Source of the DNA: a virus
Lineage: Duplodnaviria > Caudoviricetes
IMG/VR virus record: IMGVR_UViG_3300033141_003435
Location: 1-58,261 of that record
Strand: one strand, 5' to 3'
Length of the DNA: 58,261 nt
Shown: piece by piece, positions 5,915-43,956 of the stretch
Layout of the letters: the number at the start of each line of letters is the position of its first letter
Position numbering within the stretch: the first letter of the stretch is position 1
Translations under genes and position numbers: made by a program
The notes under the pieces: generated by a model
Database searches by the model: none
Told to the model about the DNA's origin: nothing
The model's input: only the letters and a program-made list of their open reading frames with translations

Positions 5915-5924
5915 CAGTCATCCT

Positions 5925-8280: not shown

Positions 8281-8282
8281 TT

Positions 8283-9110: not shown

Positions 9111-9664
9111 CCCTCGAAATACTTGAAGATGAAAAGCTCCTCAGACGGGTCTTCGTATGTGAGTTTGAAGCCGTCTTCCGCCGCAATGCTGCTAAGAACT
9201 TCTCTCCAAGTGTTGTACGACCACCACGTTATGTGAGACGGATCGTTGTAGAACCACTTGTGCTCGATAGAGCAAAATCCGACGACAACACACATCGACG
9301 AAACTCGAGTGAACTCTTTCATCGTTTTGTAGATGTCCAAAGTCGTGAGATGCTCAAGAAGATCAAACGAGATTGTGCACTCAAACGCGTCATCTCCTCC
9401 GACCATCTCGGAAAGAATGCGCGCATCTCCGAGCTTGATCAACTCTGGGAGCGGACAGCGCTTGACAATCTCTTCGTTGTACTCGACACCTAAGACTGTC
9501 TTCCCCAAACTATGGAGAAGGTGTAGCCCTTCAATGCTTTCGCACGGACAAAAAAGAAAGCTCTTCATGTAGTCAAGCTTGCTTTGATGCTCCTCCCAAA
9601 ACGCTATCTCCGAGCGTCGCAACCCCCCGTATCTTTCATAGTACTTCTTGTCAAAACCAGACAT
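9107..9664 (-). CDS. class I SAM-dependent methyltransferase-fold protein (degenerate motif I)
   Basis: LGVE, GDA, FECTISFDLLEHL, DPSHI motifs. Confidence 0.65.
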   Translation of the reverse strand: MSGFDKKYYERYGGLRRSEIAFWEEHQSKLDYMKSFLFCPCESIEGLHLLHSLGKTVLGVEYNEEIVKRCPLPELIKLGDARILSEMVGGDDAFECTISFDLLEHLTTLDIYKTMKEFTRVSSMCVVVGFCSIEHKWFYNDPSHITWWSYNTWREVLSSIAAEDGFKLTYEDPSEELFIFKYFEG

Positions 9665-9673
9665 CTTCTCCTC

Positions 9674-10687: not shown

Positions 10688-11391
10688 TGCTCTCCTCCAA
10701 TCCAAAAGAAGCAATCGTAGGTGTCTCTCACAATTATCTCCTTTACACTTCGTCCAAGCTTCTTGCCCAGCACTTCAATGGAGTCTTCGTGAAACATCTG
10801 CACATGTTCGCGGTTGTAAGACATCTCAAGCACATCCCACCTGAAGTCGGGAAACATCGGCACAATCCCGAAGAAGTCTCCATCAAGCGCCTTCCCCAAA
10901 TGCTCAACAAATGCACTCAGATCAATGATGTGCTCAAGCGTATGTGAACAGATAATCACGTCAAATCTTTCCCCAAACTCAGCCCACGCAAAAAGATTCT
11001 CTGAAACATCGATGAGATCGATGCGATGGCTCCGCGCCTCCAGCATATCGTCGTCTGTATAGAAATCGGCGGCGACTAAGTCCCAATTGCGCCGTCTTTC
11101 TCGTATCTGACGAAGCGTATGCTGGGACTTGCCCGCACCGATGTCAAGCACCGCAAACTTGGGACGACGTATGACGTTAAGCCGCTTCAACACCATCTCT
11201 GTGTTCAATCGATTTAGCCATTTGTACACTTCCAACCGCTCTTCTATCCACTTCGCGTCTTCTCCAAGTCTGTAGTCAACTCTCTCGGGGTTGACGTTCC
11301 ATACAAGTTCGCAAGAGAAACACTTACGAAACGCCCCTTCGCGCAAACTCCCCCACGAGTCATCTCCACACAACGGGCAAACGTTTCTCAA
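10684..11391 (-). CDS. class I SAM-dependent methyltransferase with N-terminal Zn finger
   Basis: CPLC..CFSC, VLDIGAG, FDVIICSHTLEHI. Confidence 0.85.
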   Translation of the reverse strand: MRNVCPLCGDDSWGSLREGAFRKCFSCELVWNVNPERVDYRLGEDAKWIEERLEVYKWLNRLNTEMVLKRLNVIRRPKFAVLDIGAGKSQHTLRQIRERRRNWDLVAADFYTDDDMLEARSHRIDLIDVSENLFAWAEFGERFDVIICSHTLEHIIDLSAFVEHLGKALDGDFFGIVPMFPDFRWDVLEMSYNREHVQMFHEDSIEVLGKKLGRSVKEIIVRDTYDCFFWIGGEQ

Positions 11392-11993
11392 TGCTCCGAT
11401 TTTCCTTTCATTTCGACCATAGGAAGCACAAAAGTTTTGGGGCGTTCAAACGCCCCCGCCTTAGCCAGCGTGTCAATGATGATCTTGATGTAAGTTATCG
11501 CTTCCTCCTTCAAATCTTTGTCTCGAAGAAACTCGCCTTGCGCTGAGACTTCGAGTCCGTGTTTCGAGATTCGCACAACATAGCGATCAGGGAGCTTCAG
11601 TACCAACTTGGAATCCTGGAGGCGCTCATTGTGGAGATACGCAAAAATCCACATCTCTTCGCTTGACTTTCGCTCGTGAATAAACAGCCCCCTCCTCTGA
11701 GGGAAGTTGCACGTCGCGTGATCGTCGACGTAAAGGTCAGCTTGAGGTTTGTCAAACTTCAGCTCGTGGTACTTCACACCCCAACTCGCCAGCCACTCCT
11801 TTGTCACCTTCACTACGCCCTTGTCAGAGCTTCGGCGAGATGTAAAGAGTATGATTTTGTGCCCCGCATTATAGAGCGCATTAACAAGAGCGATGTTCTC
11901 TTTGTTTGGAACTCGAGAACGAAACGCTTCGACAGAATGGGTCGGAGGAGCATCACACAGTATTCCGTCAATGTCGACCACGTAGACCATCAC
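11388..11993 (-). CDS. HAD-superfamily phosphatase with C-terminal extension
   Basis: VDIDGIL, ILFTSR, KP.ADLYVDD. Confidence 0.85.
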   Translation of the reverse strand: MMVYVVDIDGILCDAPPTHSVEAFRSRVPNKENIALVNALYNAGHKIILFTSRRSSDKGVVKVTKEWLASWGVKYHELKFDKPQADLYVDDHATCNFPQRRGLFIHERKSSEEMWIFAYLHNERLQDSKLVLKLPDRYVVRISKHGLEVSAQGEFLRDKDLKEEAITYIKIIIDTLAKAGAFERPKTFVLPMVEMKGKSEH

Positions 11994-12940
11994 CTTCCTC
12001 CGATCAAGCGAAGAAACTCCTCTTTGACTTTGTCTTCGAGGAAGTTCCCCTGCATCGCTGAAGTTGTCATGACAGAAGCTTGCTTCTCAACACCTCTAGC
12101 CATCATACAAAGATGCTGAGCTTCGATGACAACTCCGACTCCCATGGGGCGCAACGTTTCTGTAATAGCACTTGCTATCTGTTGTGTAAGTCGCTCCTGT
12201 ATCTGCAGGCGTCTCGCATAGCACTCAACAAGTCTTATCAACTTCGAAATTCCGACAACTTTGTCTTTGGGAAGATAGCCGATATGCACTTTTCCAAAGA
12301 AGGGCATCATGTGATGCTCACACGTTGAGAAGAACTCGATGTTCTTCAGCACTATCATCTGATCATAGTGAAGCGTTTCAGAGAACTGAGCTTGAAGTTT
12401 GACGATGGCAGAGATGTTGTCGCGATACCCACCGAAGAGCTTGCCCCAGCTCTTAACGACTCTTGTCGGCGTATCCTTCAACCCCTCTCTGTTTGGGTCA
12501 TCTCCGATGTACTCGATGATTCGTCGTACGCTATCTTCGATTTCTCTCGGAGACTCCCAGGGAAACACAATCCACTTGCCGCGCGCCACCGTTCTGAGGA
12601 AGATGTCGGGCTTGATCGCCGCTCCTTCCTTCACGTACAACGCCGCCGTCAAAAAGCCCTTCTCAACATACGGACGAATCGTCTCCCCACTATCAACAAT
12701 GTCATCCACAATCACAGTGCGAGAAACATCGGGGGACGAATCAAGCGCCTCTAAAGTTCTCACGATTTCTCGAGCAACGAACCACCCTCCGACAGGAATT
12801 CCGAACACGGTTCGCAGCCCTCTTCGTGCGACTTCAATTGTCAGCTCGTTCCTTAGCTCATCGCAAAGCATTCCCAGCCCTTTCCACGAAAGAGCTATCT
12901 TATCTGCAGTATCTTGTGAAGTTGAAGACTGAGCCTCCAT
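11990..12940 (-). CDS. folE: type I phosphoribosyltransferase (Gpt-like) fused to GTP cyclohydrolase I
   Basis: N-terminal GIPVGG, VIVDDIVDSGET, WIVFPWE; C-terminal REGLKDTP.RV, CEHH, GISKL.R, RLQIQERLT, HLCMMARG. Confidence 0.92.
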   Translation of the reverse strand: MEAQSSTSQDTADKIALSWKGLGMLCDELRNELTIEVARRGLRTVFGIPVGGWFVAREIVRTLEALDSSPDVSRTVIVDDIVDSGETIRPYVEKGFLTAALYVKEGAAIKPDIFLRTVARGKWIVFPWESPREIEDSVRRIIEYIGDDPNREGLKDTPTRVVKSWGKLFGGYRDNISAIVKLQAQFSETLHYDQMIVLKNIEFFSTCEHHMMPFFGKVHIGYLPKDKVVGISKLIRLVECYARRLQIQERLTQQIASAITETLRPMGVGVVIEAQHLCMMARGVEKQASVMTTSAMQGNFLEDKVKEEFLRLIGGR

Positions 12941-13506
12941 CCTTCCCTCCGTTTCACAATTTCAACGCACCTTCTAATCTCGTCTGGGTCATTGTCTTTC
13001 GGCTGAAGGAAAAGATGAAGGCCCTTGTCGGTTGACGCCCTTTCGAACTCCTCCAGCTCGCTATCTGTGTGGTTGTCAAACACCACTTTGACCTCTTTCG
13101 CCAATTGAACGTTGTAAGCCGACCCTCTTTTCGGACTGACCGTAACCCAATCGACATAGCACTCCAACCATCGAGGGGAGTTTGTTCCATTAGTTTCGAC
13201 CGCTATCCACCGCACGCCCCTCTCACGTACGCCGCAAACGAACTGCATCATAAGCTCATCGTCTTGTATCGTCGGCTCCCCTCCGGTCAACACTATGCGC
13301 GGAACACAGTACGACGCGACTTTAGTTATCAACGCACCGACTGTGTATTTCTTTCCTGACTTCCAGGCGTATTTCGTGTCACACCAGGAGCAACGAAGAT
13401 TACATCCAGCGAACCTCACAAACACAACAGGCAACCCCGTCCAAGCTCCCTCTCCTTGTATGGAGTAGAAAACCTCATTTACCTGCAGTTTCTTTGGCTT
13501 TGACAC
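12895..13506 (-). CDS. queE: 7-carboxy-7-deazaguanine synthase
   Basis: EVFYSIQGEG, VFVRFAGCNLRCSWCDT, LTGGEP, VETNG, VTVSPK, WRLSLQLHK; GTG start 13506 with GAGGAG. Confidence 0.95.
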   Translation of the reverse strand: MSKPKKLQVNEVFYSIQGEGAWTGLPVVFVRFAGCNLRCSWCDTKYAWKSGKKYTVGALITKVASYCVPRIVLTGGEPTIQDDELMMQFVCGVRERGVRWIAVETNGTNSPRWLECYVDWVTVSPKRGSAYNVQLAKEVKVVFDNHTDSELEEFERASTDKGLHLFLQPKDNDPDEIRRCVEIVKRREGWRLSLQLHKILQIR

Positions 13507-13909
13507 GTCGTCTCCTCGGCCAGACAATCTTCTGCTCGTTGTACGTACAACTGGCGTTGCTGCTCTCCCACACAGTGACACTCCAAAGCTTGCAAATTTT
13601 CTTTGCCTCAAAAGGAGCTAGAAGCTTTTGCAGCTCCTCGTAAATCCACTTTGAAAGATTCTCTGCAGTCGGATTGAGTCCCTCGGGGAGAATACGATTC
13701 AGATATCCGTGGTCAAGTTGTGACGTTACCTTCGTGATGTAGCGTTTGATGTCTCTGAAGTCGAGTACCATGCCGATCTCTCGCGTTTTGTTGGCGACAA
13801 TAGTCACAGCCACCTTCCATGTATGCCCGTGCAACGCCGCACAAGCTCCATGATAGCCCTCAAGGTGGTGGGCCGCCGCAAAGTCGCTTTCCAAAGTCAA
13901 TGCAAACAT
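13475..13909 (-). CDS. queD: 6-carboxytetrahydropterin synthase
   Basis: FAAAH, C..LHGH, LDF, LDH..LN, PTAEN, V.E; start ATG 13909. Confidence 0.95.
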   Translation of the reverse strand: MFALTLESDFAAAHHLEGYHGACAALHGHTWKVAVTIVANKTREIGMVLDFRDIKRYITKVTSQLDHGYLNRILPEGLNPTAENLSKWIYEELQKLLAPFEAKKICKLWSVTVWESSNASCTYNEQKIVWPRRRRVKAKETAGK

Positions 13910-13919
13910 CTTGCCCTCC

Positions 13920-14132
13920 CTACAGCTCTCGCATCTCTCTGTCCTTACGCTTGTTGACACTGAGTTGCAGAACGCCAGCCACCATCCAAAAGATGAAGGT
14001 GGCTCCAATGCCCGCCAGCGGACACCACCAACGAAGCCCCAAGAGCCACCACAACACCTTGATCGTCGCCAGCAAGCCGAACAGTGTACCGACAAGCGCA
14101 ACCAAAGCAGGAGTTGATTCACCGACTCTCAT
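13920..14132 (-). CDS. small two-TM membrane protein
   Basis: Two hydrophobic segments and a basic tail; ATGA overlap with the upstream gene. Confidence 0.6.
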   Translation of the reverse strand: MRVGESTPALVALVGTLFGLLATIKVLWWLLGLRWWCPLAGIGATFIFWMVAGVLQLSVNKRKDREMREL

Positions 14133-14752
14133 TCCGTCACTTCCTGTATCGTGTAGAGTATCTCGGGGTGTCGCTCCTGAAGTCCCTTGACCAGAGACGC
14201 CACCTCGTCTGAGACAGAAGGCCAGAGGCCAGCCGGAATGCGAATCGTCACTTCGACATTCTGTATGAGTCGCTCCCCTTCCGCCTCTTCTCCCCCTTCT
14301 GCCATCTCTTCGCTCGCAGGAGGTTCGACATCAATCTGTGCCCAGTTTCGACGCTCCTCCAACTCGTCAGGAGTGAAAAGAGTGTCGAGATCAACTTCCT
14401 CCATCTCTTCCAGAGACTTGGCAAGTTGGTATCTCGCCAATTCGTCATACCCGTTGAACTCCGGGATACGATTCGATGCCAGCGAGTACCACTTCGCCTG
14501 CGCCTCCGTCAAATCGCTTCTGTCGATAACAGGCACTTCCGGAAGATTCAGCTTCTGTGCCGCCTTCCATCGAGCGGCCCCGGCAAGAATCACTCCGTCG
14601 CGCCAAACAACAATCGGGTCGATGAACCCAACCTTGGTTATCGACTCACACAGAGCGTCTATGCCCCTCTCTGTGTGGATGCGGCAATTCCAATCAGGCT
14701 CCTTGAGTGAGTCGACAGGAACAACCGCTCTCGATGACGCTGCCTCAACCAT
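14129..14752 (-). CDS. ParB/Srx-domain protein
   Basis: WNCRIH, GFIDPIVV, ILAGAARW, VPVI, LASNR; start ATG 14752 with GGAGG. Confidence 0.85.
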   Translation of the reverse strand: MVEAASSRAVVPVDSLKEPDWNCRIHTERGIDALCESITKVGFIDPIVVWRDGVILAGAARWKAAQKLNLPEVPVIDRSDLTEAQAKWYSLASNRIPEFNGYDELARYQLAKSLEEMEEVDLDTLFTPDELEERRNWAQIDVEPPASEEMAEGGEEAEGERLIQNVEVTIRIPAGLWPSVSDEVASLVKGLQERHPEILYTIQEVTE

Positions 14753-14827
14753 TTCAACCTCCAATTCAAAAATATGTTATCACGAGTCGGATACGCGCCC
14801 GACAACCGTGACAACGACGTTTCAAAA

Positions 14828-22638: not shown

Positions 22639-22874
22639 TTGTCTAAACGCTCCAAGTCTCTCGTAATGCGTTTCGCAATTCTGATCGCCTTCTCTGCCGG
22701 AATGACGTTGTACTCCGTAGCCTTCAGCACCCTGTCAATACCCCGTACTTTGATCAGCGGAACCCTTTCTCCACTGTCGCTTGTTCCGATAGCCACAACC
22801 TTGCCCCACCCAAGACAACAAGCTCGCTTATCGTCCCAAACTTGGACCTTCTCTCCCAGTTTAAGTTTGCTCAT
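22635..22874 (-). CDS. hypothetical beta-rich small protein
   Basis: From ATG 22874 (GGAGG RBS): LKLGEKVQVWD..LGWGKVV, resembling 40836-41060. Confidence 0.6.
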   Translation of the reverse strand: MSKLKLGEKVQVWDDKRACCLGWGKVVAIGTSDSGERVPLIKVRGIDRVLKATEYNVIPAEKAIRIAKRITRDLERLDK

Positions 22875-23763
22875 TTGCACCTCCAACACTCTTCTGCTTA
22901 CGATGACGAAGCAGATTCTCCAGAACGCCCTCAAGCGTCACTTTCTCCATGTGCGTCAATGCCCAAACTAGCTCCAAAGGAGTTGTCACTACCCCAAAAT
23001 GCTCCTTGAGACTTTGCTGCAGACTCTGAAGCGCACTAGCCAGACGTATCACGCTTCTCCTCCTATAATTTGCTCCAAGCCCGGCGTTACGCATCCGTTG
23101 CGCCAGAGTCTGCACCGAAATCCCAAGTTGCTTCGCAACCCTCTTCTTGTCGTAGTGTCTTGTTTGAAGCAGCATCAAAAGATGTGCTCTCTTCGCCATT
23201 CGCTCTGCTTTCTGATAGGCGCCCTTCCCTCTTCGAACGAAGTCTATCAACCCAAGCTCTTCCGTCAATTGTCGTACACGCTCCCTAGACAACTTCAACT
23301 TCTGCCCCGCTTTACTGTAGTTGAAAAGCGAAGAAGACAGAACTTTCCGAAGCATCTCCCTCCTTGTACGACGAATCACCTCTGAACGTGTGCCATAAAG
23401 CTGACGAAGCACTACATCTCGATGTACGAAGATACGAAGTGTGTCATATGACACACCAATCCTCTCTGCAATCCCATGAAGTGTGCTGCTTGACTTCACC
23501 AACTCTTGGGCAATCAAATCCCAATGTCGTTCACACTTCACCATTGCCCTTGCTCGTCTCATACTTGTCTTACGTTCTCTCGCTCTATACGCGTGAGCCG
23601 CCTCTTGATTCTGCCAAATCCAGTAATACAACGAGTTGATTGACGCTCCTGGACTCCCAAAACGTCGTACAATCTTTTCCAGAGTTACGCCCTCTTTCAA
23701 AGCCCGTACGACAGCCTCACGATGACGATCGTACGCAAGACTGCTAGTTCGTCTTCTCCCCAC
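22861..23763 (-). CDS. multi-HTH transcriptional regulator
   Basis: Several HTHs: TLHGIAERIGVSYDTL, SKAGQKLKLSRERVRQL (sigma region 4-like), KKRVAKQLGISVQTL (Fis-like). Confidence 0.75.
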   Translation of the reverse strand: MGRRRTSSLAYDRHREAVVRALKEGVTLEKIVRRFGSPGASINSLYYWIWQNQEAAHAYRARERKTSMRRARAMVKCERHWDLIAQELVKSSSTLHGIAERIGVSYDTLRIFVHRDVVLRQLYGTRSEVIRRTRREMLRKVLSSSLFNYSKAGQKLKLSRERVRQLTEELGLIDFVRRGKGAYQKAERMAKRAHLLMLLQTRHYDKKRVAKQLGISVQTLAQRMRNAGLGANYRRRSVIRLASALQSLQQSLKEHFGVVTTPLELVWALTHMEKVTLEGVLENLLRHRKQKSVGGANEQT

Positions 23764-24718
23764 TCTCCTCCTCCTCCTTCAAACCAGACAAATCACACGA
23801 TTTAGACCATAACTCTTTGTGCAACTTAGTCATACGCTTCTTCTCACTCGAAAGAAGGTAGCCCGTCGAAAAGAGATACTTCTGCTGAAGGGCAATAAGC
23901 TCCATAAACATCTCCTCAAGTTGTGACAGCTCACTCCCCTTCGAAAAGCCACCCAAGACATCTCTCCAAACAGCTAGACGAAATGAGTCCCAATGTCGAC
24001 AAACATCAAGTGAAGAAGGCAGCCTGAAGGTCGAATACGGCGCAACGAATCCGCCAAGATACATCGGTTCAAGTCGTTTGAATCCATGCGGATTCGTTAT
24101 CGGACTCAAAAGATGCTTCAGAAACAACGACCAGTTCTTCCACATCCCGGCCAACGCCTTCGCTTTGAGCCAAGTGCGCAGAGGCTCTTCATCCCCTTCA
24201 AGCACAGCTATTTGGACCGCCTTAGCCATCCCAGTCATAATCTCTCCAACACGAAACAGCTCGACCAACAACGGTCGTCCTTTCGCTTCACCTACCATCC
24301 ACAACACAGCCCAGAGCTTGCTATTCCCAACAAATTTAGTAAACTGGGCCTTGTCATCGACAACAACTCCCAACCGCCAACTCACCGGAATAAGCTCCCC
24401 AGAGGAAGTTCGCAGTGGACGCTTGTGCTGTGACAGTTGATCGAAGAGCAGCTCACAAACCATCCTTGGATCACCAAGACTCGCAAGCCACATATAGAAT
24501 TCTGCTCCTATCTGCCTTCCATCTCGAATTCCGAACTGTCGTTTGACTCCCTCTACTATACAGCTCTCATCTATCTCCTGCAAAGCCACTGCGTCCTCAC
24601 CTTCAGCTTCGTACATCAACCTCCAATGTCGTTCACTGTTCGCCAAGACTTTCACCTCTCTCATTGAAGAGCGCGCAAGCAGGAGAAACAACTGAGAGCT
24701 TTTGGTTGGTGTACTCAC
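23744..24718 (-). CDS. hypothetical protein
   Basis: 324 aa ORF directly downstream of the JAB genes; true start probably 24647-24665. Confidence 0.7.
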   Translation of the reverse strand: MSTPTKSSQLFLLLARSSMREVKVLANSERHWRLMYEAEGEDAVALQEIDESCIVEGVKRQFGIRDGRQIGAEFYMWLASLGDPRMVCELLFDQLSQHKRPLRTSSGELIPVSWRLGVVVDDKAQFTKFVGNSKLWAVLWMVGEAKGRPLLVELFRVGEIMTGMAKAVQIAVLEGDEEPLRTWLKAKALAGMWKNWSLFLKHLLSPITNPHGFKRLEPMYLGGFVAPYSTFRLPSSLDVCRHWDSFRLAVWRDVLGGFSKGSELSQLEEMFMELIALQQKYLFSTGYLLSSEKKRMTKLHKELWSKSCDLSGLKEEEESGEKTN

Positions 24719-25409
24719 ATGTCAACACGCCGTCCCTTCCACTCACAGGAGTTGCATGACTGCACTCTCGACAAAACTTCCCTGGAGTCACCGTCCCCAA
24801 CTTTAGACTCTTCGCAACAGGAGCAACCAACTCTCTTGAGTCGAACTCAACCTTTGACACCTTTTCGTCGATCTCCTGTTTGAGAGCTGTTCTTTGTGAA
24901 GAAGACAACGTTGTACTGATGACCACCTTGATAGGAAGTGTATACGCTCCAAACTCAGCTTGTCCATCAATGCGAGCAAGGGCTTCTCCCCCTGTATTGA
25001 GAACCAACGACACAAACCACTCTCCGCACTTTCGCAAGTCTGCACAAGTCTTCTCGTCAATATCGCTCCAGAAGACCTCTCCATCTCCATGCGTATGCCA
25101 CCAAAACTTGAGCAACAACCCCTCATCATGACTTTTCTCATTCATCAAAGTCGCCTGGAGAGCAGCAACCTGCTCCGACTCAAGCTCCACATCAGCCAAC
25201 CCAGCTTTTTGCTCCAGCAGATAGAGCCTCTCAACACAAAGTCTTCCCTCTTCTGCTATCCTCAACTCACCCAAGCCGCTCACTTCATATGGAGCAACGT
25301 CCCTTGCGATAAAGAGCAGCTCATCCCACTGCTCTCTCGAAAGAACCAACCTCAATTTAGGCCCTTCGTAAGCGGCTGACACCTTCCCTCTTCCGTCTAA
25401 CTCTTCCAT
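24633..25409 (-). CDS. JAB/MPN+ metalloprotease with C-terminal Cys4 module
   Basis: EVSGLG, WWHTH.....WS..D (JAMM motif); CRECSH...C...PACALF. Confidence 0.85.
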   Translation of the reverse strand: MEELDGRGKVSAAYEGPKLRLVLSREQWDELLFIARDVAPYEVSGLGELRIAEEGRLCVERLYLLEQKAGLADVELESEQVAALQATLMNEKSHDEGLLLKFWWHTHGDGEVFWSDIDEKTCADLRKCGEWFVSLVLNTGGEALARIDGQAEFGAYTLPIKVVISTTLSSSQRTALKQEIDEKVSKVEFDSRELVAPVAKSLKLGTVTPGKFCRECSHATPVSGRDGVLTCEYTNQKLSVVSPACALFNERGESLGEQ

Positions 25410-25422
25410 TGTTCCTCCTCAG

Positions 25423-26466
25423 TCATTTTTTCTTTCTCTTCCATAGGTGACATGCGGCGGCTCCAGCATATATGTCTCCAGGCTCAAGCGTCTCACCACG
25501 TGCCATCGCTTCATGAAATAACGTCCCCATTCTTTCGCAATGCGGCTTCTCTCGTTCATTGAAGTATCTGCACGTTCCACATGTTTCTCTTTCCCACTTC
25601 TTGGATTTTTCGGACTTTACTTTTTTCTTCGCTTCACCCTTCACATCATCGCTCTGCAGCTTCTTTGTCAACGTTTCAACAACCTTCTGCTGTTCAGAGC
25701 GAGTTTTGAACTCTCCGACTTTGCTCTCTCTAGGAAGAAACTGCGAACAAGCGGGGGCTGTAGGACGACGATGAGTATCTCGAACAGACTCTGAGTTGGT
25801 GCACAACCCTGTTAAGCTCCTACCAGTACTGTAATAAAAACACTCTTGACAACGATTCCTCCACCACTCCGATTCGCCTCTCCACTCTCGCAGCGCCCAA
25901 CGCCTTCTTGGTTCTTCGTCGACTTCTCTCGGAGACAATTGAAGCTTTCGTACCATCTTACGCAACTGCTCCTGACGCCTTTCGCTTAACTCGGATGAGA
26001 AAGAGAGCTTCAAGTTGTCGACCTTCAACCTTCCGTATCCTTCATCGACATCAAGACGCAACTTATATTCTTGAGATGTGTTCAACACCAACGAAAGAAA
26101 CCAACCTCCACTACTGACCAACGCTCTTATTGTCGACTCGTCCGTCCCAGACCAAAATGCGCCCATCCTTCCGTGCGAATGCCACCAAAACTTCAACTCC
26201 TCCGACTCATCGTGTTCGTGGATATACTTCGCTATTGCTTCACCATCCAGTGTTGAATGAGTAGTCGAGCACCGCTGAGGGAACAAAAGCCAGTCGTAGA
26301 CAACCAGTTTGTGATCATCCTCAACACGTACCTTCCCCAGTCCACTCAACTCGTCGGGCAACACCTCCTTTGACAAAAACAGAATTTCTTCCCATATCCG
26401 ATTCGACATGCTCACTTCTACTTCAAACTCAACGTCGAGCAACAAATCCTTCCCGTCTTTTCTCAT
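25423..26466 (-). CDS. JAB/MPN+ metalloprotease with two C-terminal Cys4 modules
   Basis: ELSGLG, WWHSHGRMGAFWSGTD; CQECFYY..C..PACSQF and CGTCRYF..C..AACHLW. Confidence 0.87.
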   Translation of the reverse strand: MRKDGKDLLLDVEFEVEVSMSNRIWEEILFLSKEVLPDELSGLGKVRVEDDHKLVVYDWLLFPQRCSTTHSTLDGEAIAKYIHEHDESEELKFWWHSHGRMGAFWSGTDESTIRALVSSGGWFLSLVLNTSQEYKLRLDVDEGYGRLKVDNLKLSFSSELSERRQEQLRKMVRKLQLSPREVDEEPRRRWALREWRGESEWWRNRCQECFYYSTGRSLTGLCTNSESVRDTHRRPTAPACSQFLPRESKVGEFKTRSEQQKVVETLTKKLQSDDVKGEAKKKVKSEKSKKWERETCGTCRYFNEREKPHCERMGTLFHEAMARGETLEPGDIYAGAAACHLWKRKKK

Positions 26467-26469
26467 TCA

Positions 26470-27129
26470 TCAACCTCCTGTCACAGACTCTATCGTTGGA
26501 GTATGCATTGACGCTACAAATGTCATCTGCTCTCCCGACTTTAAGTATCCTCGCACAGCCCTCACCACCAAAGCCGCTACCAAAAAAGCCACGTCGATGA
26601 TTGCTCTTGCTGTACAAGGCAACTCTGCTGCATCCTTATCTTCAAACAAAGTCGTCTCATATGCTGTGATTCCATCTACATCACAAGGGTTGAAAGCGAT
26701 GACCTTTACGTTCTCACCCCCTATTCGACCGTCGACAAAAAGACGAACAGCTGGATTCAACCGCGCCTTCTCCCAAATCTTCTTTCTCACTTCCATCTTG
26801 TCCACGGCAGCGATGACTACCCCTTCGAGTTCCGACCCCTCCCAGTACTTCTCAATCGGACTTATCTTCGCCTCTCCCATCCCTAAGAGAATGTCGGCAA
26901 GGGCAACCGCCTTATTGCTTCCAATGTCTTCAATCCTGAAGAGCTGATTTGGGGTGTTGTGCTCTTCAACTTTGTCTCCGTCCCAAAGCTCCAATCGCTC
27001 CACCCCGAGTTTCACCAAGCCCAAAGTCGTCCAGCTTCCAATTCCGCCGCAACCAATCACCGTCACCTTCACTCCCTTTAGCTTGGCGGGCTCTAAGAAA
27101 TCCATCTGACGCCAATATCTCGTCTCCAT
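26470..27129 (-). CDS. ThiF/MoeB/E1-like activating enzyme
   Basis: RYWRQ, VIGCGGIGS, DGDKVEEHN..NQ, AVD....R, DGR, candidate catalytic Cys in ELPCT; no Zn-binding CxxC pairs. Confidence 0.92.
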   Translation of the reverse strand: METRYWRQMDFLEPAKLKGVKVTVIGCGGIGSWTTLGLVKLGVERLELWDGDKVEEHNTPNQLFRIEDIGSNKAVALADILLGMGEAKISPIEKYWEGSELEGVVIAAVDKMEVRKKIWEKARLNPAVRLFVDGRIGGENVKVIAFNPCDVDGITAYETTLFEDKDAAELPCTARAIIDVAFLVAALVVRAVRGYLKSGEQMTFVASMHTPTIESVTGG

Positions 27130-28472
27130 CACGCACCTCCAACTTCAGGAGACGGAAGCTCCTCACCCGTCCAATTTTTCCACAGCACATTCAACCTTGT
27201 GAAGCAATCACCGTAGTTGTATGAGTTCAAAAAGTTCCAGATCAACTGCACCAACATCAAGAAATTCCACTCCTTCAACAGCTTAAGGGCCGCACCTCTG
27301 ATGTTACCCCAACAAATGCTCTGACCAGCCGTAGGCTTGCCGCTAACGTGCGGATGTTGGTAAGAACTTCTCTTCCCGTAGCGCAAATTCTCCAAAGCTA
27401 TTTGAGCATCTCCTCTAAACAGCTTCAAAATGATACGAAACTCTCCAATTTCTACCATACGTTGCTCTACCTTCCTAACCCCCCGGTTCTGCACTTCGTA
27501 ACGATAACACAACTTTGCTGGAACCGTATCTACCACCAGACCGCCATCCAAGAAGCGAATAGCTCTCACAAACTTCAGCGCTGCTATCTCTTGCAACTGC
27601 TGTTGTGCCACCTCAGAAATCTTCGCTCTAGACTGTGAAGCAGCCTTAATAGCATTGACAGCACTCTCTAACGTAGCCTCTGCTTCCAACACCGCTCTCA
27701 TCGCCTGCTCAGAGACAGTAGCATCAACGTTGCTTCGATGAAACAACCGCACCCGTGCAAGAATCGCTTGCTGTACTGTTTCCCTTGTATGTGTAGTGCC
27801 AAAAGCCCTCATACGCTGCACAATCTCCTCAAGTCTAGCGCCCATCTCTTCGTCAGGATTCACCAACCGCTGCTCCAAAGCCCGAAGGTGTTCCGTGAAA
27901 AACTGAGACGCCTTGACTTGTGCGACAGTCTCAACAAACTCTTGAAACTTAGTGTTCAGCGTATTTCTTCCCTGCACGATCGCTCTTCTAAGCTCGTCAA
28001 ATCTCCGCTCTAACCCGGTAGCCAGCATCTGAGCAAACGCCTCCTCATCCCGTCGTGTCATCTTCTTCAACACTTGCTCCCGATGCTCCATCAGGTTGAA
28101 CGCCTGTACTTCCAACTCCTCAACATCCTTCAGTTGGGCGGCTCGTCCTCCTCTTCTAACTTGAGAGACCTGTTGCTCCTCATCCGTTTGTGATTGCGAC
28201 TGAGTTCTGTCCAACGCTCCTTCAGGAATCGAAATGGTTGCTACTTCTCCCTCTTCCACTCTAGTTGATCCGTATCCTGCTTGATTCAACGCTTCCAATA
28301 CCTGCTCTCGATACTCCTCAGGACACTCAAGAACATTAACGCGATACACAACGGGCAAGCCTGAGAGGTTGACTCTTGTAATATCCCCCGAAAAAGGGAT
28401 TCTTACCCATTGAGCATCCTGCTCTGCAGGTTGGCCAGAGCTTTGTCTAGCCGTTGGAGGTCGTTGACTCAT
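27129..28472 (-). CDS. E2/UBC-like conjugating enzyme with long N-terminal coiled coil
   Basis: C-terminal HPHV-x9-CWGN matching the E2 HPN...C signature; context between Ubl and E1. Confidence 0.72.
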   Translation of the reverse strand: MSQRPPTARQSSGQPAEQDAQWVRIPFSGDITRVNLSGLPVVYRVNVLECPEEYREQVLEALNQAGYGSTRVEEGEVATISIPEGALDRTQSQSQTDEEQQVSQVRRGGRAAQLKDVEELEVQAFNLMEHREQVLKKMTRRDEEAFAQMLATGLERRFDELRRAIVQGRNTLNTKFQEFVETVAQVKASQFFTEHLRALEQRLVNPDEEMGARLEEIVQRMRAFGTTHTRETVQQAILARVRLFHRSNVDATVSEQAMRAVLEAEATLESAVNAIKAASQSRAKISEVAQQQLQEIAALKFVRAIRFLDGGLVVDTVPAKLCYRYEVQNRGVRKVEQRMVEIGEFRIILKLFRGDAQIALENLRYGKRSSYQHPHVSGKPTAGQSICWGNIRGAALKLLKEWNFLMLVQLIWNFLNSYNYGDCFTRLNVLWKNWTGEELPSPEVGGA

Positions 28473-28484
28473 TTGCTCCAGCGA

Positions 28485-28751
28485 TCAGCTTCCAGCAGCT
28501 ATCCTCGGCACTGACACAACAGCGTCTCCAGGGTACACCATCATGTCTTCAGTTACCCTCTGACCGTTGACGAAATACTCCATGTTGGAGCGAAGCGATC
28601 CCTCCTCGATCAGCTGTCGAATGCTCCGACTTTCCTCATTTGGAGGAAGACTGATCTGCTTGGGTCGTCGACCCAACTCCGCAACCTTGATAGGCCGTCT
28701 TGCTGGAGTTGCTTCGTTAACAACCTCAGGTTCTCTTCTTTCGTCCGTCAT
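28485..28751 (-). CDS. ubiquitin-like beta-grasp protein (ThiS/MoaD-like)
   Basis: 88 aa; YFVNG...V.PGDAVVSVPRIAAGS, with Gly at the penultimate position; RBS AGGAGG. Confidence 0.8.
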   Translation of the reverse strand: MTDERREPEVVNEATPARRPIKVAELGRRPKQISLPPNEESRSIRQLIEEGSLRSNMEYFVNGQRVTEDMMVYPGDAVVSVPRIAAGS

Positions 28752-28769
28752 TTGACTCCTCCTTTCTTT

Positions 28770-28808
28770 CCATTATTTTTATTATAATTCTGCAAAATCC
28801 TTCGAAAA
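28770..28808 (-). promoter_or_regulatory. phage-specific promoter copy 1 (Ubl operon)
   Basis: TTTCGA-N15-TATAAT-AAAAATAATGG. Confidence 0.8.
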
Positions 28809-29090
28809 CTGTTGCTGCAAATCACGCAAAATCTTGTCTACGTCCTGAGCTAGCTGCTCCTCGTCTGGCGATCGCATCGGCTCCTCCTCAACACCCAACA
28901 ACCCCAAAGCAATCTTGATTCCTTGAGCCAACGCTCCTGATAGCATTCTAAGCTCTTGTCCATTGTCACTATCTTGAAACATACTGTTGATTCGCTCGTA
29001 GACAAGGCGCATATACTGCATCTTCTGCACTCGTTTGAGCAAATCAGTGTTAGCGTCTTCTAACTTGTCAAGTATGTTCATCGTTTCCAC
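28782..29090 (-). CDS. hypothetical protein
   Basis: 102 aa helical ORF with GGAGG RBS. Confidence 0.6.
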   Translation of the reverse strand: METMNILDKLEDANTDLLKRVQKMQYMRLVYERINSMFQDSDNGQELRMLSGALAQGIKIALGLLGVEEEPMRSPDEEQLAQDVDKILRDLQQQFSKDFAEL

Positions 29091-29692
29091 CTCCTTCTTC
29101 TGCGAAGTTTAGGACGAAGCTTTGTCTGAAGCTCCTCTTCAACCATCTGCACCAGACGATCCCACTTCATCTCCGTCATACTCGCCAACTTAAAGCGAAT
29201 CACATCTCTAATCCGCCAAAGTGCGTCACTGTAGCTGATCTTGTTGCTTCTCACTCCTGTCACAAGACGTATAGCCTCTTGCACAACAGGATTCGCAAAA
29301 CATCTTCCGTAGCGCATATCACAAAAAGCCTGCTCCTCAGGAGGAACTGCTCCAGATAGATGCACCAAACAAGTGTCGCACATCTCACCCTTCACAATCT
29401 GCAAAGTGCAAAATGCGTTGAACTCAACGCTCATAAGCGCTTCCTCCAACAACCGCCACTCCCGATAAGTGAGCGTACGACGATTAAAGAGAAGCATCGA
29501 CAAAATTCCAAACTTCTCTGCTTCATAGAATAACGCCACCTCTGGAAAGGGATATTTCATCAACATTTTTATCATTCTCCGTGGAAACTCTACTCTCCAG
29601 CTCCCTGTTATCGGAGCGACATTGCCTCGAAACCTGTACCAAGAGTGCAACAGCGCCTTCTCCTCACTACTCATCTCTTTTTTCCCTTCCAT
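29078..29692 (-). CDS. hypothetical protein
   Basis: 204 aa, Cys-containing (CDTC..C..C), downstream of promoter copy 2. Confidence 0.65.
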   Translation of the reverse strand: MEGKKEMSSEEKALLHSWYRFRGNVAPITGSWRVEFPRRMIKMLMKYPFPEVALFYEAEKFGILSMLLFNRRTLTYREWRLLEEALMSVEFNAFCTLQIVKGEMCDTCLVHLSGAVPPEEQAFCDMRYGRCFANPVVQEAIRLVTGVRSNKISYSDALWRIRDVIRFKLASMTEMKWDRLVQMVEEELQTKLRPKLRRRRRWKR

Positions 29693-29727
29693 TATTTTTA
29701 TTATAATTCTGCAGAATCCTTCGGAAA
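29689..29727 (-). promoter_or_regulatory. phage-specific promoter copy 2
   Basis: TTCCGA-N15-TATAAT-AAAAATAATGG. Confidence 0.8.
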
Positions 29728-29931: not shown

Positions 29932-31707
29932 TCAGACAACTCTACTTACTCCTCCCGATTTTCTGACGCGTATCACATTGTCAAAGAAGTCTCCCATCTC
30001 TGACATATGAGAGATGACATAGACAGCCTTCTCTCTTGCGAACTCCTGGAGGAGCGTTACAAGTCTCTCTACTCCCGCCTTGTCCAACGCCTCAAACACC
30101 TCATCCAAAATAAGTAGATTCACCTGCGTGTGAGAACGTCTGCTTATCAAATCGTGCAGCGCCAACAACACAACTACATCCGCTCGGCGCTTCTCGCCTC
30201 CAGAACAACCTACGTAAGAGTCGGAGGCACTTTGTTCTCGCACAACAACCGAGAGCTTATCGCGTATCTGACCAGCTTTAGTTTCGCTCGTGCTGCGAAA
30301 TTCTACACTTATCTTTCCATCTGTCAAAAGATTGCTGTATCGAACTGCGGATTCATTCAACATCGGTACAACACTGTCGAGAAGCATCGATTTGATGCCC
30401 CTGTTTCCAAAGCCCTCAACCCAAAAGTTGAGATGCGTAAGACGCTCACCGATGCTCTCTAACTCAACCTGCGCCTCTTTCAACTCCTTCACCAATTTGC
30501 GCTTCTCCTTAGTGCGCTCCCTCATACGATTGCGCAACTCCCTCAACACTCTACGATTCGCCTCAAGAGACGCTTCAGTCGCCTTCAAAGCACCTTGCTC
30601 CGCCAATTGAGCCTCAAACTCACCAACAATGCGCCTCACTTCAACAACCTCAGATGACAACTTTTGCTCCTCTCTTTTGAGACTGCTTGTAGCCTCAACA
30701 GACTGCTTCAAAAGCTCTTCCAACGACGCCTTCTTCTCTTCAAGCAGTCGTATAACACCAGCAATTCCGCTCTCTGTCACCTTCTGTCCACAAGTAGGGC
30801 AGACACCTCCAACCCTCTTGCACTTCGCTTCTAAATCGCTCCCAACACTCCGAAGTTCGCGCTCAGTCTGCCGCACTTTCATATCCTCTCGTTGTAGAGT
30901 GTCAGATGCCTTACGCCACTCATCCTCAAGCTTGTTTCGACGTTCTCGCATCTCCTCAAGACGCTGAAGGTCGATCGCCTTCTTCGACTCTTCGGCGACC
31001 CGCTCCGCCAACTCTTGAGTCTCAACTTCCAGTTTTCTCAACTGACTTTCTTCGTCAGCGATGACTTTCATCAGCAACGAACGCCTCTCCTCAAGTCTCA
31101 CTTTGTCTCGCTCCAACTTCGCTGCTTCCGCCTGCACGTCTGACACAGCCACTCTCACATTCTGTCTTGACTCCTCCAACCATTCCAATTGCAAGATGTC
31201 ATCAAGAACCGCTTTCTTCTCACTATCTCCCACCTGTGTGAAACGATAAGGAAGCCCTTGCGGAAAGTAGACGCTATTTGTGAAGACTTGAAACGTCATG
31301 CCCAAAATGTCTCGAATTTTCGCATCTGTAGCCTGCATAGTTGGCATCGTGATGTTATGACTTCCTCTTTTGAAGCTAACGCCTGCGGGAAATCTTGAAC
31401 GACACACAGAAAACGGAGTTTCATCCACGCTAAAAGTCACCTCGACAAAGCAGCGTGGAGAATCTTCGTCTCCTTCAAGAAGAGAGTCACGACGTACAAC
31501 ATCATCGGCTGCCACGCCTCGAATCGTACGACCGTACAGTGCCCAACACAACGCCTCCCAAATTGCGCTTTTTCCCGCCCCATTAGAGTCTGCCACACTT
31601 CCCTCAACCTCTCCGACAACGTAAAACAAGCCAGACTGCGGGATAGATAGCTCCAGCTCTTCAAACGACATAAAGTTCTTGGCTTTGATTTTGTGAAACG
31701 TTATCAA
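29932..31707 (-). CDS. sbcC: SbcC/Rad50/gp46-like ATPase
   Basis: SNGAGKS, Zn hook CPTC, signature SGGE, LLILDEVFEALD, ISH. Confidence 0.95.
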   Translation of the reverse strand: MITFHKIKAKNFMSFEELELSIPQSGLFYVVGEVEGSVADSNGAGKSAIWEALCWALYGRTIRGVAADDVVRRDSLLEGDEDSPRCFVEVTFSVDETPFSVCRSRFPAGVSFKRGSHNITMPTMQATDAKIRDILGMTFQVFTNSVYFPQGLPYRFTQVGDSEKKAVLDDILQLEWLEESRQNVRVAVSDVQAEAAKLERDKVRLEERRSLLMKVIADEESQLRKLEVETQELAERVAEESKKAIDLQRLEEMRERRNKLEDEWRKASDTLQREDMKVRQTERELRSVGSDLEAKCKRVGGVCPTCGQKVTESGIAGVIRLLEEKKASLEELLKQSVEATSSLKREEQKLSSEVVEVRRIVGEFEAQLAEQGALKATEASLEANRRVLRELRNRMRERTKEKRKLVKELKEAQVELESIGERLTHLNFWVEGFGNRGIKSMLLDSVVPMLNESAVRYSNLLTDGKISVEFRSTSETKAGQIRDKLSVVVREQSASDSYVGCSGGEKRRADVVVLLALHDLISRRSHTQVNLLILDEVFEALDKAGVERLVTLLQEFAREKAVYVISHMSEMGDFFDNVIRVRKSGGVSRVV

Positions 31708-31910: not shown

Positions 31911-32150
31911 TCACTCCTCAACTTCATAGACAACATTAAGTTGTCGAAAAGTAAAATGCGTTCCGCAATCAGGACACACTGTAATGACTTCTTTAAGAAG
32001 ATGAAGCTCGCGATCCTTACAATTCGGACAGACAATGACACAATTCTCTTCTTCAACACACACTACTTCTACGTTTTCAACGGGGCGCATCGCATCGCCA
32101 AATCTTCTCAAAAACGCCTCTTCCTGACTTTTAATGCGAAGTTTGCTCAC
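31911..32150 (-). CDS. Zn-ribbon protein
   Basis: CPNC...CPDC. Confidence 0.6.
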   Translation of the reverse strand: MSKLRIKSQEEAFLRRFGDAMRPVENVEVVCVEEENCVIVCPNCKDRELHLLKEVITVCPDCGTHFTFRQLNVVYEVEE

Positions 32151-33151
32151 CTCTCCCTCCTTGAAATAAAGCCCTTTCCAAGAAGAGCAAGCTCACGTGC
32201 CTTATCGCCTCCCCGAGCCTCCGCATAACGTTCAACTAGCGTCGCCGGATCGTCAAGAAGCGAAATTTCCGCCCTCCTCTCAACCTCCACGACTTCAGGC
32301 GAGACAACAATCGCTTTCACTCCTTTAGGCAACGAGACAGAACGCGTTGTTGTAACCCGATAGAAATCCCTCTCATTAAATCTGTAGTCTGGATTCTCAT
32401 CGAGATTCACTTCAACAAATCTGCTAGAGTCGATCTCCTCAAAGCTCTCAATAGAACACGCTGAAGGGTCTAACTCAACGATCCAGCATCCTCGCTCCTG
32501 CCCTCTATCTCCCCAATTGTGCTGTTGCGGCGCTCCAGGAATCAACACAGTGTCGGAGACAATCGTCGGATTGTGATAATGTCCAACAACGGCGAAAGCA
32601 AATTCATCTAGAAGCTCGGGAGGCAGCCCTTCCCTAACTTCGTAGGAACCGTAATGTTGTCCGACGACATCTCCGTGTGTAATGAGCACAGTTCGACTCT
32701 TGTCTCTCACCGCGTCAAACATGTGAAGCTGATCAGAAACGTTGTAGCAGTAAGGGACACAGACAATCGACAGTCCTTCAAACACGTCGCTCACCGCATC
32801 TATCATACAACGTGAACCCAAAGCAAACTCAACCATGTTCAGAGCTGAGTAAGGAAAGTAAGGATGCTTGAAAAGCAAGTCGTGATTGCCAGACGCCCAG
32901 AAGCTTGGCTTCTTCAGCTTTCGAAGGATGCGAAGAGTCTCATAGACTGTTCGCACAGAGGCTCGATGCTTTTCGTGCCAAAGGTCTCCAGCGTGAATGA
33001 AGACATCAATGTCATCTTCATTCGCTCTGTCTATGAGCAGCTCAAGAACCTCAAGCTCCTCTTTCAGTCGGGAGTTAATGCCGTATTCGACAGCATGAGC
33101 AAACTGTTTAAATTCGTAGATGTGCGTATCAGCAGCAACTAAAGCTCTCAC
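32147..33151 (-). CDS. sbcD: SbcD/Mre11/gp47-like nuclease
   Basis: ADTH, AGDLW, GNHD, THG, GHYH metallophosphoesterase motifs. Confidence 0.93.
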   Translation of the reverse strand: MRALVAADTHIYEFKQFAHAVEYGINSRLKEELEVLELLIDRANEDDIDVFIHAGDLWHEKHRASVRTVYETLRILRKLKKPSFWASGNHDLLFKHPYFPYSALNMVEFALGSRCMIDAVSDVFEGLSIVCVPYCYNVSDQLHMFDAVRDKSRTVLITHGDVVGQHYGSYEVREGLPPELLDEFAFAVVGHYHNPTIVSDTVLIPGAPQQHNWGDRGQERGCWIVELDPSACSIESFEEIDSSRFVEVNLDENPDYRFNERDFYRVTTTRSVSLPKGVKAIVVSPEVVEVERRAEISLLDDPATLVERYAEARGGDKARELALLGKGFISRRER

Positions 33152-43790: not shown

Positions 43791-43818
43791 AAGGCGACTC
43801 CTCTCATGGAGGAAAGAA

Positions 43819-43884: not shown

Positions 43885-43956
43885 ATGTATCTCTTTGGAA
43901 GGGTCCGAACTCCTCTCTACCAACCGCGAAATTTTCTGAGTTCATCTTCCTTCCTT

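Follow-up and report, generated by a model that had tools for sequence, protein, structure and literature searches.

A tailed-phage gene cassette with the parts of a ubiquitin-like conjugation pathway and a candidate E2 family without a name

In this paper we describe a cassette of five genes in the virus record IMGVR_UViG_3300033141_003435, a linear sequence of 58,261 bases that was analysed over its whole length and is called the window here. The genes encode a small ubiquitin-like protein (Ubl, the tag), an E2-like protein (E2L), a ThiF/E1 adenylyltransferase and two JAMM metallopeptidases (JAB1 and JAB2). These parts can be identified, they are intact, they are kept together as a unit in other loci and they belong to the virus. 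We consider it reasonably probable that they make up a self-contained, working Ubl conjugation cascade that is owned by the phage and transcribed with its replication and recombination genes from a promoter of the phage family. An earlier reading of the same DNA letters, the original prediction, had proposed such an operon, and most of its claims are borne out below.

Results

Five adjoining genes owned by a phage

The cassette lies on the minus strand at 24633-28751 of the window, with the tag gene furthest upstream and JAB2 last:

28485-28751, minus strand: ubiquitin-like tag (Ubl), 88 amino acids, ending PRIAAGS
27129-28472, minus strand: E2-like protein (E2L), 447 amino acids, carrying YQHPHVSGKPTAGQSICWGN
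26470-27132, minus strand: ThiF/E1, 220 amino acids, carrying AELPCTAR
25423-26466, minus strand: JAB1, JAMM metallopeptidase, 347 amino acids, carrying HSHGRMGAFWSGTD
24633-25409, minus strand: JAB2, JAMM metallopeptidase, 258 amino acids, carrying HTHGDGEVFWSDID

From the tag to JAB2 the successive junctions are a gap of 13 nucleotides, a GTGA start/stop overlap, and gaps of 3 and 13 nucleotides. The original prediction had placed five tightly packed genes at 24633..28808; all of these open reading frames (ORFs) were found there, with overlap or gaps of at most 13 nucleotides, and each of its five part assignments (Ubl, E2, E1 and two JAMM) holds as far as homology and fold are concerned.

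The minus strand holds nearly all long ORFs of the window. A PHROG scan of 35 ORFs identified virion genes (portal, large and small terminase subunits), replication genes (family-A DNA polymerase PolA, DnaB-type helicase, primase and ligase) and recombination genes (UvsX-like recombinase, SSB, UvsY-like, RusA-like, and SbcC- and SbcD-like nucleases). This gene content marks the record as a tailed phage that brings its own machinery for replication and DNA modification. The carrier of the cassette is a phage of the virulent type. The portal, terminase and replication genes, together with the origin of the sequence as a virus record, confirm the predicted viral ownership of the machinery. It had also been claimed that no gene for thiamine, molybdenum cofactor or cysteine synthesis is nearby, and none was found among the 35 ORFs scanned. 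The CheckV completeness of the record is about 50%. There is no near relative among 50,697 GenBank phage records, in which the polymerase reaches at most 30% identity, and the cassette DNA has no match in GenBank phages.

Conservation of the cassette as a unit

Searching with E2L led to five further distinct loci of viral or metagenome origin: L004 (with L005 as its nearly identical duplicate), L006, L007, L008 and L009. The tag gene is directly upstream of E2L in all five. The ThiF gene adjoins, being one gene away in L007. A JAMM gene is present in each; L004, L006 and L007 have it in full, and in L008 and L009 the contig ends within it. A search of phage genomes for the same gene order had been proposed as a check, and Ubl-E2L with E1 and JAB is what these five loci contain. 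L007, an 85-kb viral contig, is distant, its E2L sharing 27% identity with that of the window and this within the domain alone. Past JAB2 on the downstream side, ORFs of 324 residues (23744-24718) and 300 residues (22861-23763, rich in helix-turn-helix (HTH) matches) were tried as further cassette members and excluded because they have no homologue in the related loci.

The E2-like protein and its family

E2L is composed of a small alpha/beta domain (residues 22-64), a disordered linker (73-104), an antiparallel coiled coil (110-297) and a UBC-like, that is ubiquitin-conjugating-like, domain (about 300-447; window 27132-27575). The AlphaFold model, built with the family alignment, has a pLDDT (predicted local distance difference test score) of 86.8, and the helices at 110-297 exceed 90, which bears out the long coiled coil of the original prediction. 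In the model of the C-terminal domain a helix and four strands (302-362) are followed by the HPH loop, Cys387 and three helices, which we take to be the canonical UBC order. The active-site-like residues are H373-P374-H375 and Cys387. The predicted HPHV-x9-C motif is present with a spacing of x10 instead of x9, and its tie to known E2s comes through other members of the family and not through E2L itself. The N-terminal domain is beta-beta-beta-alpha, and the structural neighbours of the coiled coil include AcrA hairpins, YscO/FliJ and SMC/Rad50 arms, which are generic coiled-coil matches and of note only in view of the SbcC/Rad50 gene that constantly adjoins the cassette.

A word-indexed search with E2L returned two close homologues only. 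The last 150 residues of E2L, turned into a profile, matched 477 of 1.84 billion cluster representatives at E<=1e-3, of which 21 lie at 1e-10 and 6 at 1e-30. Most members are 350-500 residues long with the domain at the C-terminus. Four residues (G343, H375, C387, G389) do not vary in an alignment of 86 members, and H373 and P374 hardly do. No Pfam family was over its cut-off in any of 40 members scanned, the 10 clusters looked up contain unnamed ENA, JGI and Logan metagenome proteins only, and the neighbours in the ESM Atlas and the BFVD matches are mostly viral. As judged from its sequence profile, E2L is the founding member of a large family of 477 representatives that has no name, comes from metagenomes only and is mostly viral.

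The coiled coil swamped the fold searches with the whole model, and the UBC fold was therefore tested by sequence. One protein, P0079, of 183 residues and without most of the coiled coil, is securely assigned to the family by an hhalign alignment over 170 columns (Prob 99.95, E 3e-38). It matches positions 19-117 of the 140 in the Pfam UQ_con profile, with E 2.9e-5 and 24.1 bits against a cut-off of 27, and phmmer against the PDB finds human UBE2L3 and UBE2L6 at E 0.003-0.005. Its 15 PDB rows at E<=1 comprise 11 named E2s, two 'L3A2-1' chains with the same aligned sequence (UbcH7-like) and two unrelated proteins. In the alignment lyHPHvksdGQcCLgnI stands on iYHPNidekGQvCLpvI, so that HPH falls on HPN and the invariant Cys on the E2 Cys, presumably the catalytic Cys of UbcH7. 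UQ_con is also the commonest Pfam family among the weak matches of the E2L family (3 of 86 and 3 of 49 further members, all below cut-off). A profile made from 20 short members and the window domain has UBE2L3-type proteins as its top nine PDB rows (E 0.016-0.023), ahead of any coiled-coil protein. With both P0079 and this 20-member profile, the HPN-type motif and the Cys line up with their counterparts in known E2s. Among the structural neighbours of the ESM Atlas model are Prok-E2_D clusters with TM-scores of 0.48-0.51, rated 'under the bar'. Taking these results together, we regard membership of E2L in the UBC superfamily as likely.

Several searches were negative. E2L has no meaningful match in Pfam, PHROGs, PADLOC or NCBIfam, and the full-length family profile found designed or coiled-coil proteins only among PDB sequences. 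A search of the L004, L006 and L007 records with Prok-E2_D gave nothing at E<=1. Searching GenBank phages by tblastn with the 447-residue protein, P0064 and P0030 gave no match, nor did a search of viral contigs with P0012. The E2L alignment found nothing in genome contigs representing one genome for each of 185,579 species, and prophages therefore give no clue to the host.

The tag, the E1 and the JAMM peptidases

The tag has a disordered N-terminus of 25 residues, a core at about 26-87 and a C-terminus that reads PRIAAG followed by a single Ser. The core of its AlphaFold model reaches a pLDDT of 88-91, and the predicted fold is the beta-grasp of ThiS/MoaD-type modifiers. The top Foldseek rows are MoaD, MOCS2A, ThiS and TtuB (prob 0.96-0.99, E 0.03-0.2, none <=0.001); over Foldseek and VIA together the top rows include MoaD, ThiS, TtuB and BubA, and CysO is also among the best. 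A small ORF stands at the tag position in each related locus. The terminal Gly (Gly87 in the window) does not vary among all six loci, and either nothing or a single residue comes after it: the tags end IAAG-S in the window, IRGG in L009, IRGG-K in L008, IVAG in L004/L005, ITAG-C in L006 and VKGG-R in L007, and in two close relatives the ending is RIRGG. The 88-residue beta-grasp protein ending IAAG-S is in this way confirmed by the ORF at 28485-28751, the ThiS/MoaD-type model and the invariant Gly. A Gly-terminated beta-grasp protein with zero or one extra residue has the look of a JAB-matured modifier as described by Iyer 2006 (PMC1779556). The tag has no meaningful match in Pfam, PHROGs, PADLOC or NCBIfam, and in a set of 5.8 billion proteins its only homologue was itself.

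The E1 belongs to the ThiF superfamily, matching Pfam ThiF (PF00899) with 62.7 bits (cut-off 28.1; E 3.8e-17). Its Gly-rich nucleotide loop GCGGIGS is kept in 6 of 6 homologues, and the six cassette homologues share as invariant an N-terminal R-Q-x-D, Asp51/Asp53, Lys74, Asp111, Arg116, Asp134/Arg136 and Cys173-Thr174. The putative catalytic residue Cys173 (ELPCTAR) is invariant in all six and also in the ThiF proteins of phages FpV4 and cr111. The candidate catalytic Cys in ELPCT was part of the original prediction, and this residue is present and conserved. Its top matches in the PDB are to PaaA (E 5.7e-10), MccB (E 2e-8), Uba1, Uba5, TcdA and Cap2 (E about 9e-4), all over the nucleotide-binding stretch only. 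In NCBIfam the best rows are ThiF and MoeB, all far below cut-off. A search of viral contigs with E1 alone returned none.

The prediction of an E1-tag complex, which had been proposed as a check, scored 0.52 against 0.00 for the best control, a result rated as 'weak support'. The runs agree in at least 92% of contacts and the partners have a pLDDT of at least 87. Of 157 solved complexes 116 attained this score, as did 2 of 215 mismatches; only 18 of those solved complexes, but both mismatches, lie at 0.60 or below. Complexes of the ThiF-ThiS type have already been solved, so the score may reflect likeness alone.

JAB1 is over the Pfam cut-off for Prok-JAB (PF14464; 26.5 bits, cut-off 25) and JAB2 is below it (20.1 bits). 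The zinc sites of both are intact and of the JAMM/MPN+ type (HSHx7SxxD in JAB1, HTHx7SxxD in JAB2), and the alignment of the two places the upstream Glu in ELSGLG and EVSGLG. The two JAMM proteases of the original prediction are confirmed; JAB2 does not reach the cut-off, but its motif is complete. They are paralogues with 30% identity over 239 residues (E 5e-31). All 11 PDB rows of JAB1 at E<=1 are Rpn11/PSMD14 or CSN5, and these are weak (E 0.15-1). At its C-terminus JAB1 has two Cys modules (206, 209, 222, 240 and 296, 299, 310, 339), and JAB2 has a single CxxC...C...C module (213-245). The pattern is CxxC-x(12-14)-C-x(13-28)-C and no family matched it. The number of modules differs between loci, with two and one in the two window proteins, two in L006 (8294-9319), about six in L004 (8627-9994) and none in L007. 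The modules may be Zn ribbons for the recognition of the substrate or the tag.

Neighbouring genes

Upstream of the tag gene the window holds the following genes:

28782-29090, minus strand: companion gene, 102 amino acids, directly upstream of Ubl
29078-29692, minus strand: companion gene, 204 amino acids, with four invariant Cys at C95, C105, C108 and C131 (C-x9-C-x2-C-x22-C)
29932-31707, minus strand: SbcC/Rad50-like nuclease gene (phrog_77 at 1e-106)
32147-33151, minus strand: SbcD/Mre11-like nuclease gene (phrog_100 at 3e-35)

Both companion genes are kept in the same place in three relatives (L009:400-1268, L004:5438-6272 and L006:4671-5634). No family match was found for the 204-residue protein in Pfam, PHROGs or NCBIfam, and none for the 102-residue protein. 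It is speculative that the four-Cys companion is an adaptor, an E3-like factor or a target.

A gene for SbcC/Rad50 is found no more than about 3 kb from the cassette, both in the window and in all four loci that reach far enough (L004/L005, L006, L007 and L009). In L007:2698-10046 the order is SbcD-like, tag, E2L, JAB, E1 and Rad50, with the cassette between both nuclease genes. This constant SbcCD/Mre11-Rad50 neighbourhood, including the position between the genes in L007, may point to DNA-end processing or to defences that sense it. The Rad50-like gene of L007 has a zinc hook, and the SbcC-like gene of L006 (840-3773) holds an intein (Hint, LAGLIDADG and Hom_end matches). In L004 and L006 ParB-like genes are found one or two genes ahead of the cassette.

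At some distance from the cassette the window contains a run of 7-deazaguanine (queuosine-precursor) genes at 5003-14122 on the minus strand, with TGT/DpdA-like, QueC-like, Gat-QueC fusion, FolE, QueE and QueD genes. The run also holds SAM-decarboxylase-like, radical SAM (S-adenosylmethionine) and phosphoheptose-isomerase-like genes, and it is flanked by ParB-like genes at 3466-4185 and 14129-14764. The gene run suggests that the phage DNA carries a modified guanine. No tRNA gene was found in the tRNA scan, which therefore gives no hint of the host.

A promoter-like element before the tag gene

The 18-mer TTATAATAAAAATAATGG has four exact copies in the window, compared with 0.01 expected from shuffled sequence, and all are on the minus strand, which is the coding strand. 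The positions are:

28770, minus strand: exact match to the 18-mer
29689, minus strand: exact match to the 18-mer
43957, minus strand: exact match to the 18-mer
56788, minus strand: exact match to the 18-mer
28770-28808, minus strand: promoter-like element TTTTCGAAGGATTTTGCAGAATTATAATAAAAATAATGG, with TATAAT at 28781-28786 and an AAGGAGG ribosome-binding site downstream

The four copies can be aligned over about 39 nucleotides (TTTCCGAAGGATT...GCAGAATTATAAT...) with a perfect TATAAT. The element at 28770-28808 covers the final codons of the preceding gene and ends about 20 nucleotides ahead of the tag start codon. The second copy (core 29689-29706) precedes the 204-residue companion gene. In L009, whose proteins are 42-63% identical to those of the window, the element is present at both orthologous sites; none was seen in the more distant L004 and L006. 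A generic sigma-70 consensus scan had no excess (7 against 6.1 in shuffles), nor had a terminator consensus scan (6 against 7.5 in shuffles).

The repeat is a real regulatory element of the phage lineage. The original prediction had called it a phage-specific promoter: a conserved repeat directly before the Ubl gene is what stood, and that the 39-nucleotide element functions as a promoter is what we infer. Of the two remaining copies, one stands before a gene at about 43790-43950 that lies upstream of the DNA polymerase, the other before a gene near 56748. The 300-residue ORF at 22861-23763 on the minus strand has a Sigma70 region-4 match (E 1.4e-8) and several further HTH matches, and its product may be a transcription factor or sigma-like protein able to read the repeated element.

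Comparison with known systems

Of the systems described so far, PRTRC (ParB-related, ThiF-related cassette) comes closest, both in its composition and in being carried by mobile elements. Its Ubl-E2-JAB-ThiF cassette of plasmids and integrative and conjugative elements is operon type 6d of Iyer, Burroughs & Aravind 2006 (PMC1779556), and a bona fide PRTRC locus consists of Prok_Ub, Prok-E2_D, a DUF2016-JAB and ThiF beside ParB. Both have the same four functions in one mobile-element cassette, and tblastn with the window E1 finds PRTRC ThiF on plasmids at 27-28% identity over 72-75% of the length. The function of PRTRC is likewise unassigned, and the 45 papers listed for it mention it in genome-annotation contexts only. 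The window proteins differ in that they score far below the PRTRC models (TIGR03734-03742), with 38.5 bits against a cut-off of 144.75 for PRTRC_ThiF (TIGR03736) and 15.6 against 101.8 for PRTRC_A, and in that the Pfam families Prok_Ub, Prok-E2_D and DUF2016 match the PRTRC locus and not the window proteins. E2L keeps the classical HPH(N)-Cys, whereas the E2s of type 6d are described in PMC1779556 as being without that His. Furthermore, E2L sits on a coiled coil of 190 residues, the window JAB has Cys4 modules and no DUF2016/JAB-N, and the carrier is a tailed phage.

The bacterial systems BilABCD (ISG15-like) and Bub are anti-phage according to PMC10557695 and 10.1101/2023.09.04.556158. The likeness of the window to Bil, Bub and the cyclic-oligonucleotide-based anti-phage signalling system (CBASS) lies in the parts list, with no specific sequence relation. 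Bil and Bub are host defence systems, while this cassette is phage-borne; the window E1 is far smaller and the coiled-coil architecture of E2L differs. No Ubl, E2L or JAB match to PADLOC models was found (PADLOC-DB 2023, which may predate Bil/Bub models). The Rossmann core of the window E1 matches 32 PADLOC 'E1-E2' models, which represent Cap2 of type II CBASS (best E 1.4e-11), and there is a JAB partner as in CBASS. These matches span residues of about 17-90 only, however, and the window encodes E1 and E2L separately, has a Ubl dedicated to them, and shows no CD-NTase or effector among the 45 ORFs scanned.

Compared with the eukaryotic E2 UBE2L3/UbcH7, the family motif Y-x-H-P-H-(x)n-G-Q-x-C-x-G falls on Y-H-P-N-x4-G-Q-V-C-L, and the order of secondary structures is that of the E2L model. 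E2L differs in having His and not Asn as the third motif residue, in a helix 2 that begins two residues past the Cys, and in its long beta-hairpins and fused coiled coil and N-terminal domain. No family member attains the UQ_con gathering score (best 24.1 against 27).

A ThiF protein 32-35% identical to the window E1 occurs in 29 Flavobacterium and 26 Bacteroides (crAss-like) phage records, where it is annotated as 'thiamine biosynthesis protein'. Its neighbours are annotated as hypothetical or 'metalloprotease domain'. Two of these JAB-ThiF cassettes, each with the order protein of about 420 residues, JAMM (about 420 residues) and ThiF, are:

2548-5618 of Flavobacterium phage FpV4 (F. psychrophilum; L001)
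2430-5660 of the uncultured crAss-like phage cr111_1 (L002)

The neighbouring JAMM motif is intact and the E1 Cys is kept. In the 420-residue protein Y-x-H-S-H...C-x-G is set on the E2L motif by hhalign with a Prob of only 1.6-2.6%, and the E2L family as a whole aligns with the crAss/FpV 420-residue proteins over the motif only (Prob 0.2-2.6%). An unnamed 420-residue BFVD model matches the E2L model (prob 0.97) and its accession resembles a Flavobacterium phage 23T row. The gene order is different, no small Gly-terminated tag gene was seen at those loci, and a hidden Markov model of the E2L family gave no match to the Flavobacterium and crAss loci at E<=10. As a lead for further work, a remote version of the cassette may exist in cultured crAss-like and Flavobacterium phages.

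For phages more generally, Iyer 2006 (PMC1779556) offers the Ubl and JAB of lambda/T1 tail assembly as a precedent, and the nearest viral item is an Asgard-virus preprint with E1-like genes only. We found no description of a full Ubl-E2-E1-JAB set in a bacteriophage in the accessible main text of the literature, including PMC1779556, PMC10557695, 10.1101/2023.09.04.556158 and 10.1101/2021.07.29.454249, with subscription-only papers and supplements outside the scope.

Discussion

Our results describe five intact genes whose functions are kept together in further loci of viral or metagenome origin. For the chemistry, that is the thioesters and isopeptide conjugates, and for the targets we infer the following course. 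A JAMM peptidase would trim the single residue after Gly87 of the tag. The E1 would then adenylate Gly87 with ATP, possibly forming a thioester on Cys173, and the tag would be handed to Cys387 of the UBC-like domain of E2L and moved onto lysines of target proteins. The coiled coil and N-terminal domain of E2L could serve as a built-in targeting or dimerising arm, with the 204-residue neighbour as a candidate adaptor, and the two JAMM peptidases with their Cys4 modules might also undo the tagging. Our leading guesses for the targets are phage or host proteins of DNA metabolism, or host defence proteins.

A number of observations weigh against a conjugation cascade. The link of E2L to known E2s is transitive, and every E2 match is sub-threshold or borderline. 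With the window E2L itself there is no row for UQ_con or Prok-E2 models even at E<=10, and hhalign of E2L with PRTRC B (Prok-E2_D) aligned the active-site motif only (Prob 1.5%, E 0.033). The structure prediction that had been proposed for the 447-residue protein gave a UBC-compatible order of secondary structures, but whole-model fold searches (Foldseek and VIA) gave coiled-coil matches only. ThiF/MoeB-type proteins usually have the motif N-x-x-R-Q with a conserved Arg. The corresponding residues 58-63 of the E1 read H-N-x-P-N-Q, G-G-Q or S-G-Q, and the Arg is missing in all five aligned. The E1 is also very short, its 220 residues being roughly a bare adenylation domain without a separate Cys or UFD domain, and the prediction of its complex with the tag was rated as 'weak support'. 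No E3 is recognisable in the cassette. Finally, the nearest structures of the tag are the sulfur carriers MoaD, ThiS and TtuB, and sets of JAB, E1 and ThiS-like proteins are also found in sulfur pathways according to Iyer 2006 (PMC1779556).

These last points raise the question whether the tag is instead a sulfur carrier, which would form a thiocarboxylate for the modification of a small molecule, tRNA or DNA, with the Cys of E2L as a persulfide relay and JAB only maturing the C-terminus. The structural matches of the tag, to which CysO can be added, fit this idea, and so do the sulfur-assimilation clusters with JAB, E1 and ThiS/MoaD of the same paper, the ThiF and MoeB rows of the E1 in NCBIfam (far below cut-off) and the richness of this phage in base modification, with its 7-deazaguanine genes. 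The 45 ORFs scanned, however, hold no rhodanese, cysteine desulfurase, ThiG/ThiH, MoaE, TtuA- or CysM-type family, in a record that is about half complete. The tie of the E2L family to UBC/E2, with an HPN-like motif and Cys in register, also speaks against it, two JAMM peptidases with Zn modules exceed the needs of C-terminal trimming, and in the tags of L004 and L009, which end at Gly, there is nothing to trim. We consider a sulfur carrier unlikely. It is also conceivable that E1 adenylation serves a product of the type of ribosomally synthesised and post-translationally modified peptides, in which the E1 would chemically modify the C-terminus of a small protein in the fashion of MccB or PaaA and the product would not be a protein tag. 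PaaA and MccB are the best PDB rows of the E1 (E 5.7e-10 and 2e-8), but the matches are limited to the Rossmann nucleotide-binding residues 9-91, and the substrate is a folded beta-grasp of 60 residues ending in Gly and not a short peptide. MccB uses an N-terminal peptide-clamp domain, for which an E1 of 220 residues has no space. Such a product would also leave the E2-like and JAB partners unexplained, and we hold it to be highly improbable.

A different role for the JAMM peptidases would be counter-defence, in which they strip Ubl conjugates of the host (Bil or CBASS Cap2-type) and the tag, E1 and E2 serve chiefly to mislead or compete with host enzymes and not to tag targets of their own. 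The two JABs are paralogous with variable Cys4 modules, and the number of JABs and modules varies among the relatives, as would be the case for a gene in an arms race. Bacterial Ubl systems are described as anti-phage in PMC10557695 and 10.1101/2023.09.04.556158. Against this, the JABs have no specific likeness to the defence JABs in PADLOC (JAB1 none, JAB2 E 0.019), and all six loci keep the four functions side by side, the catalytic residues of E1 and E2L being invariant, which speaks for a functioning cascade that belongs to the phage. Counter-defence by the JABs therefore seems quite unlikely to us as the main purpose, and what weight is left belongs to an explanation that we did not think of.

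The conjugation cascade that we prefer would have a wider meaning. So far the Ubl-E1-E2-JAB cascades of prokaryotes have been either bacterial anti-phage systems (Bil, CBASS Cap2/Cap3 and Bub) or predictions on plasmids (PRTRC type 6d). That tailed phages own an autonomous Ubl conjugation machine, built on an unrecognised E2 family and tagging host or phage proteins in the replication and recombination phase, is a proposition on which we are evenly divided. If it is true, phages turn the same chemistry to offence or to the control of their own replication, and the virus side of the phage-bacterium conflict uses protein signalling that resembles ubiquitination. The result would define an E2 family that is large, viral and so far without a name, and the 'ThiF / thiamine biosynthesis' labels in gut crAss-like phages would have to be re-read. 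The minimal E1 of 220 residues and an E3-less, coiled-coil E2 would be attractive for work on structure and mechanism, and the targets of a virus-encoded Ubl in a bacterium could be tested with a five-gene construct.

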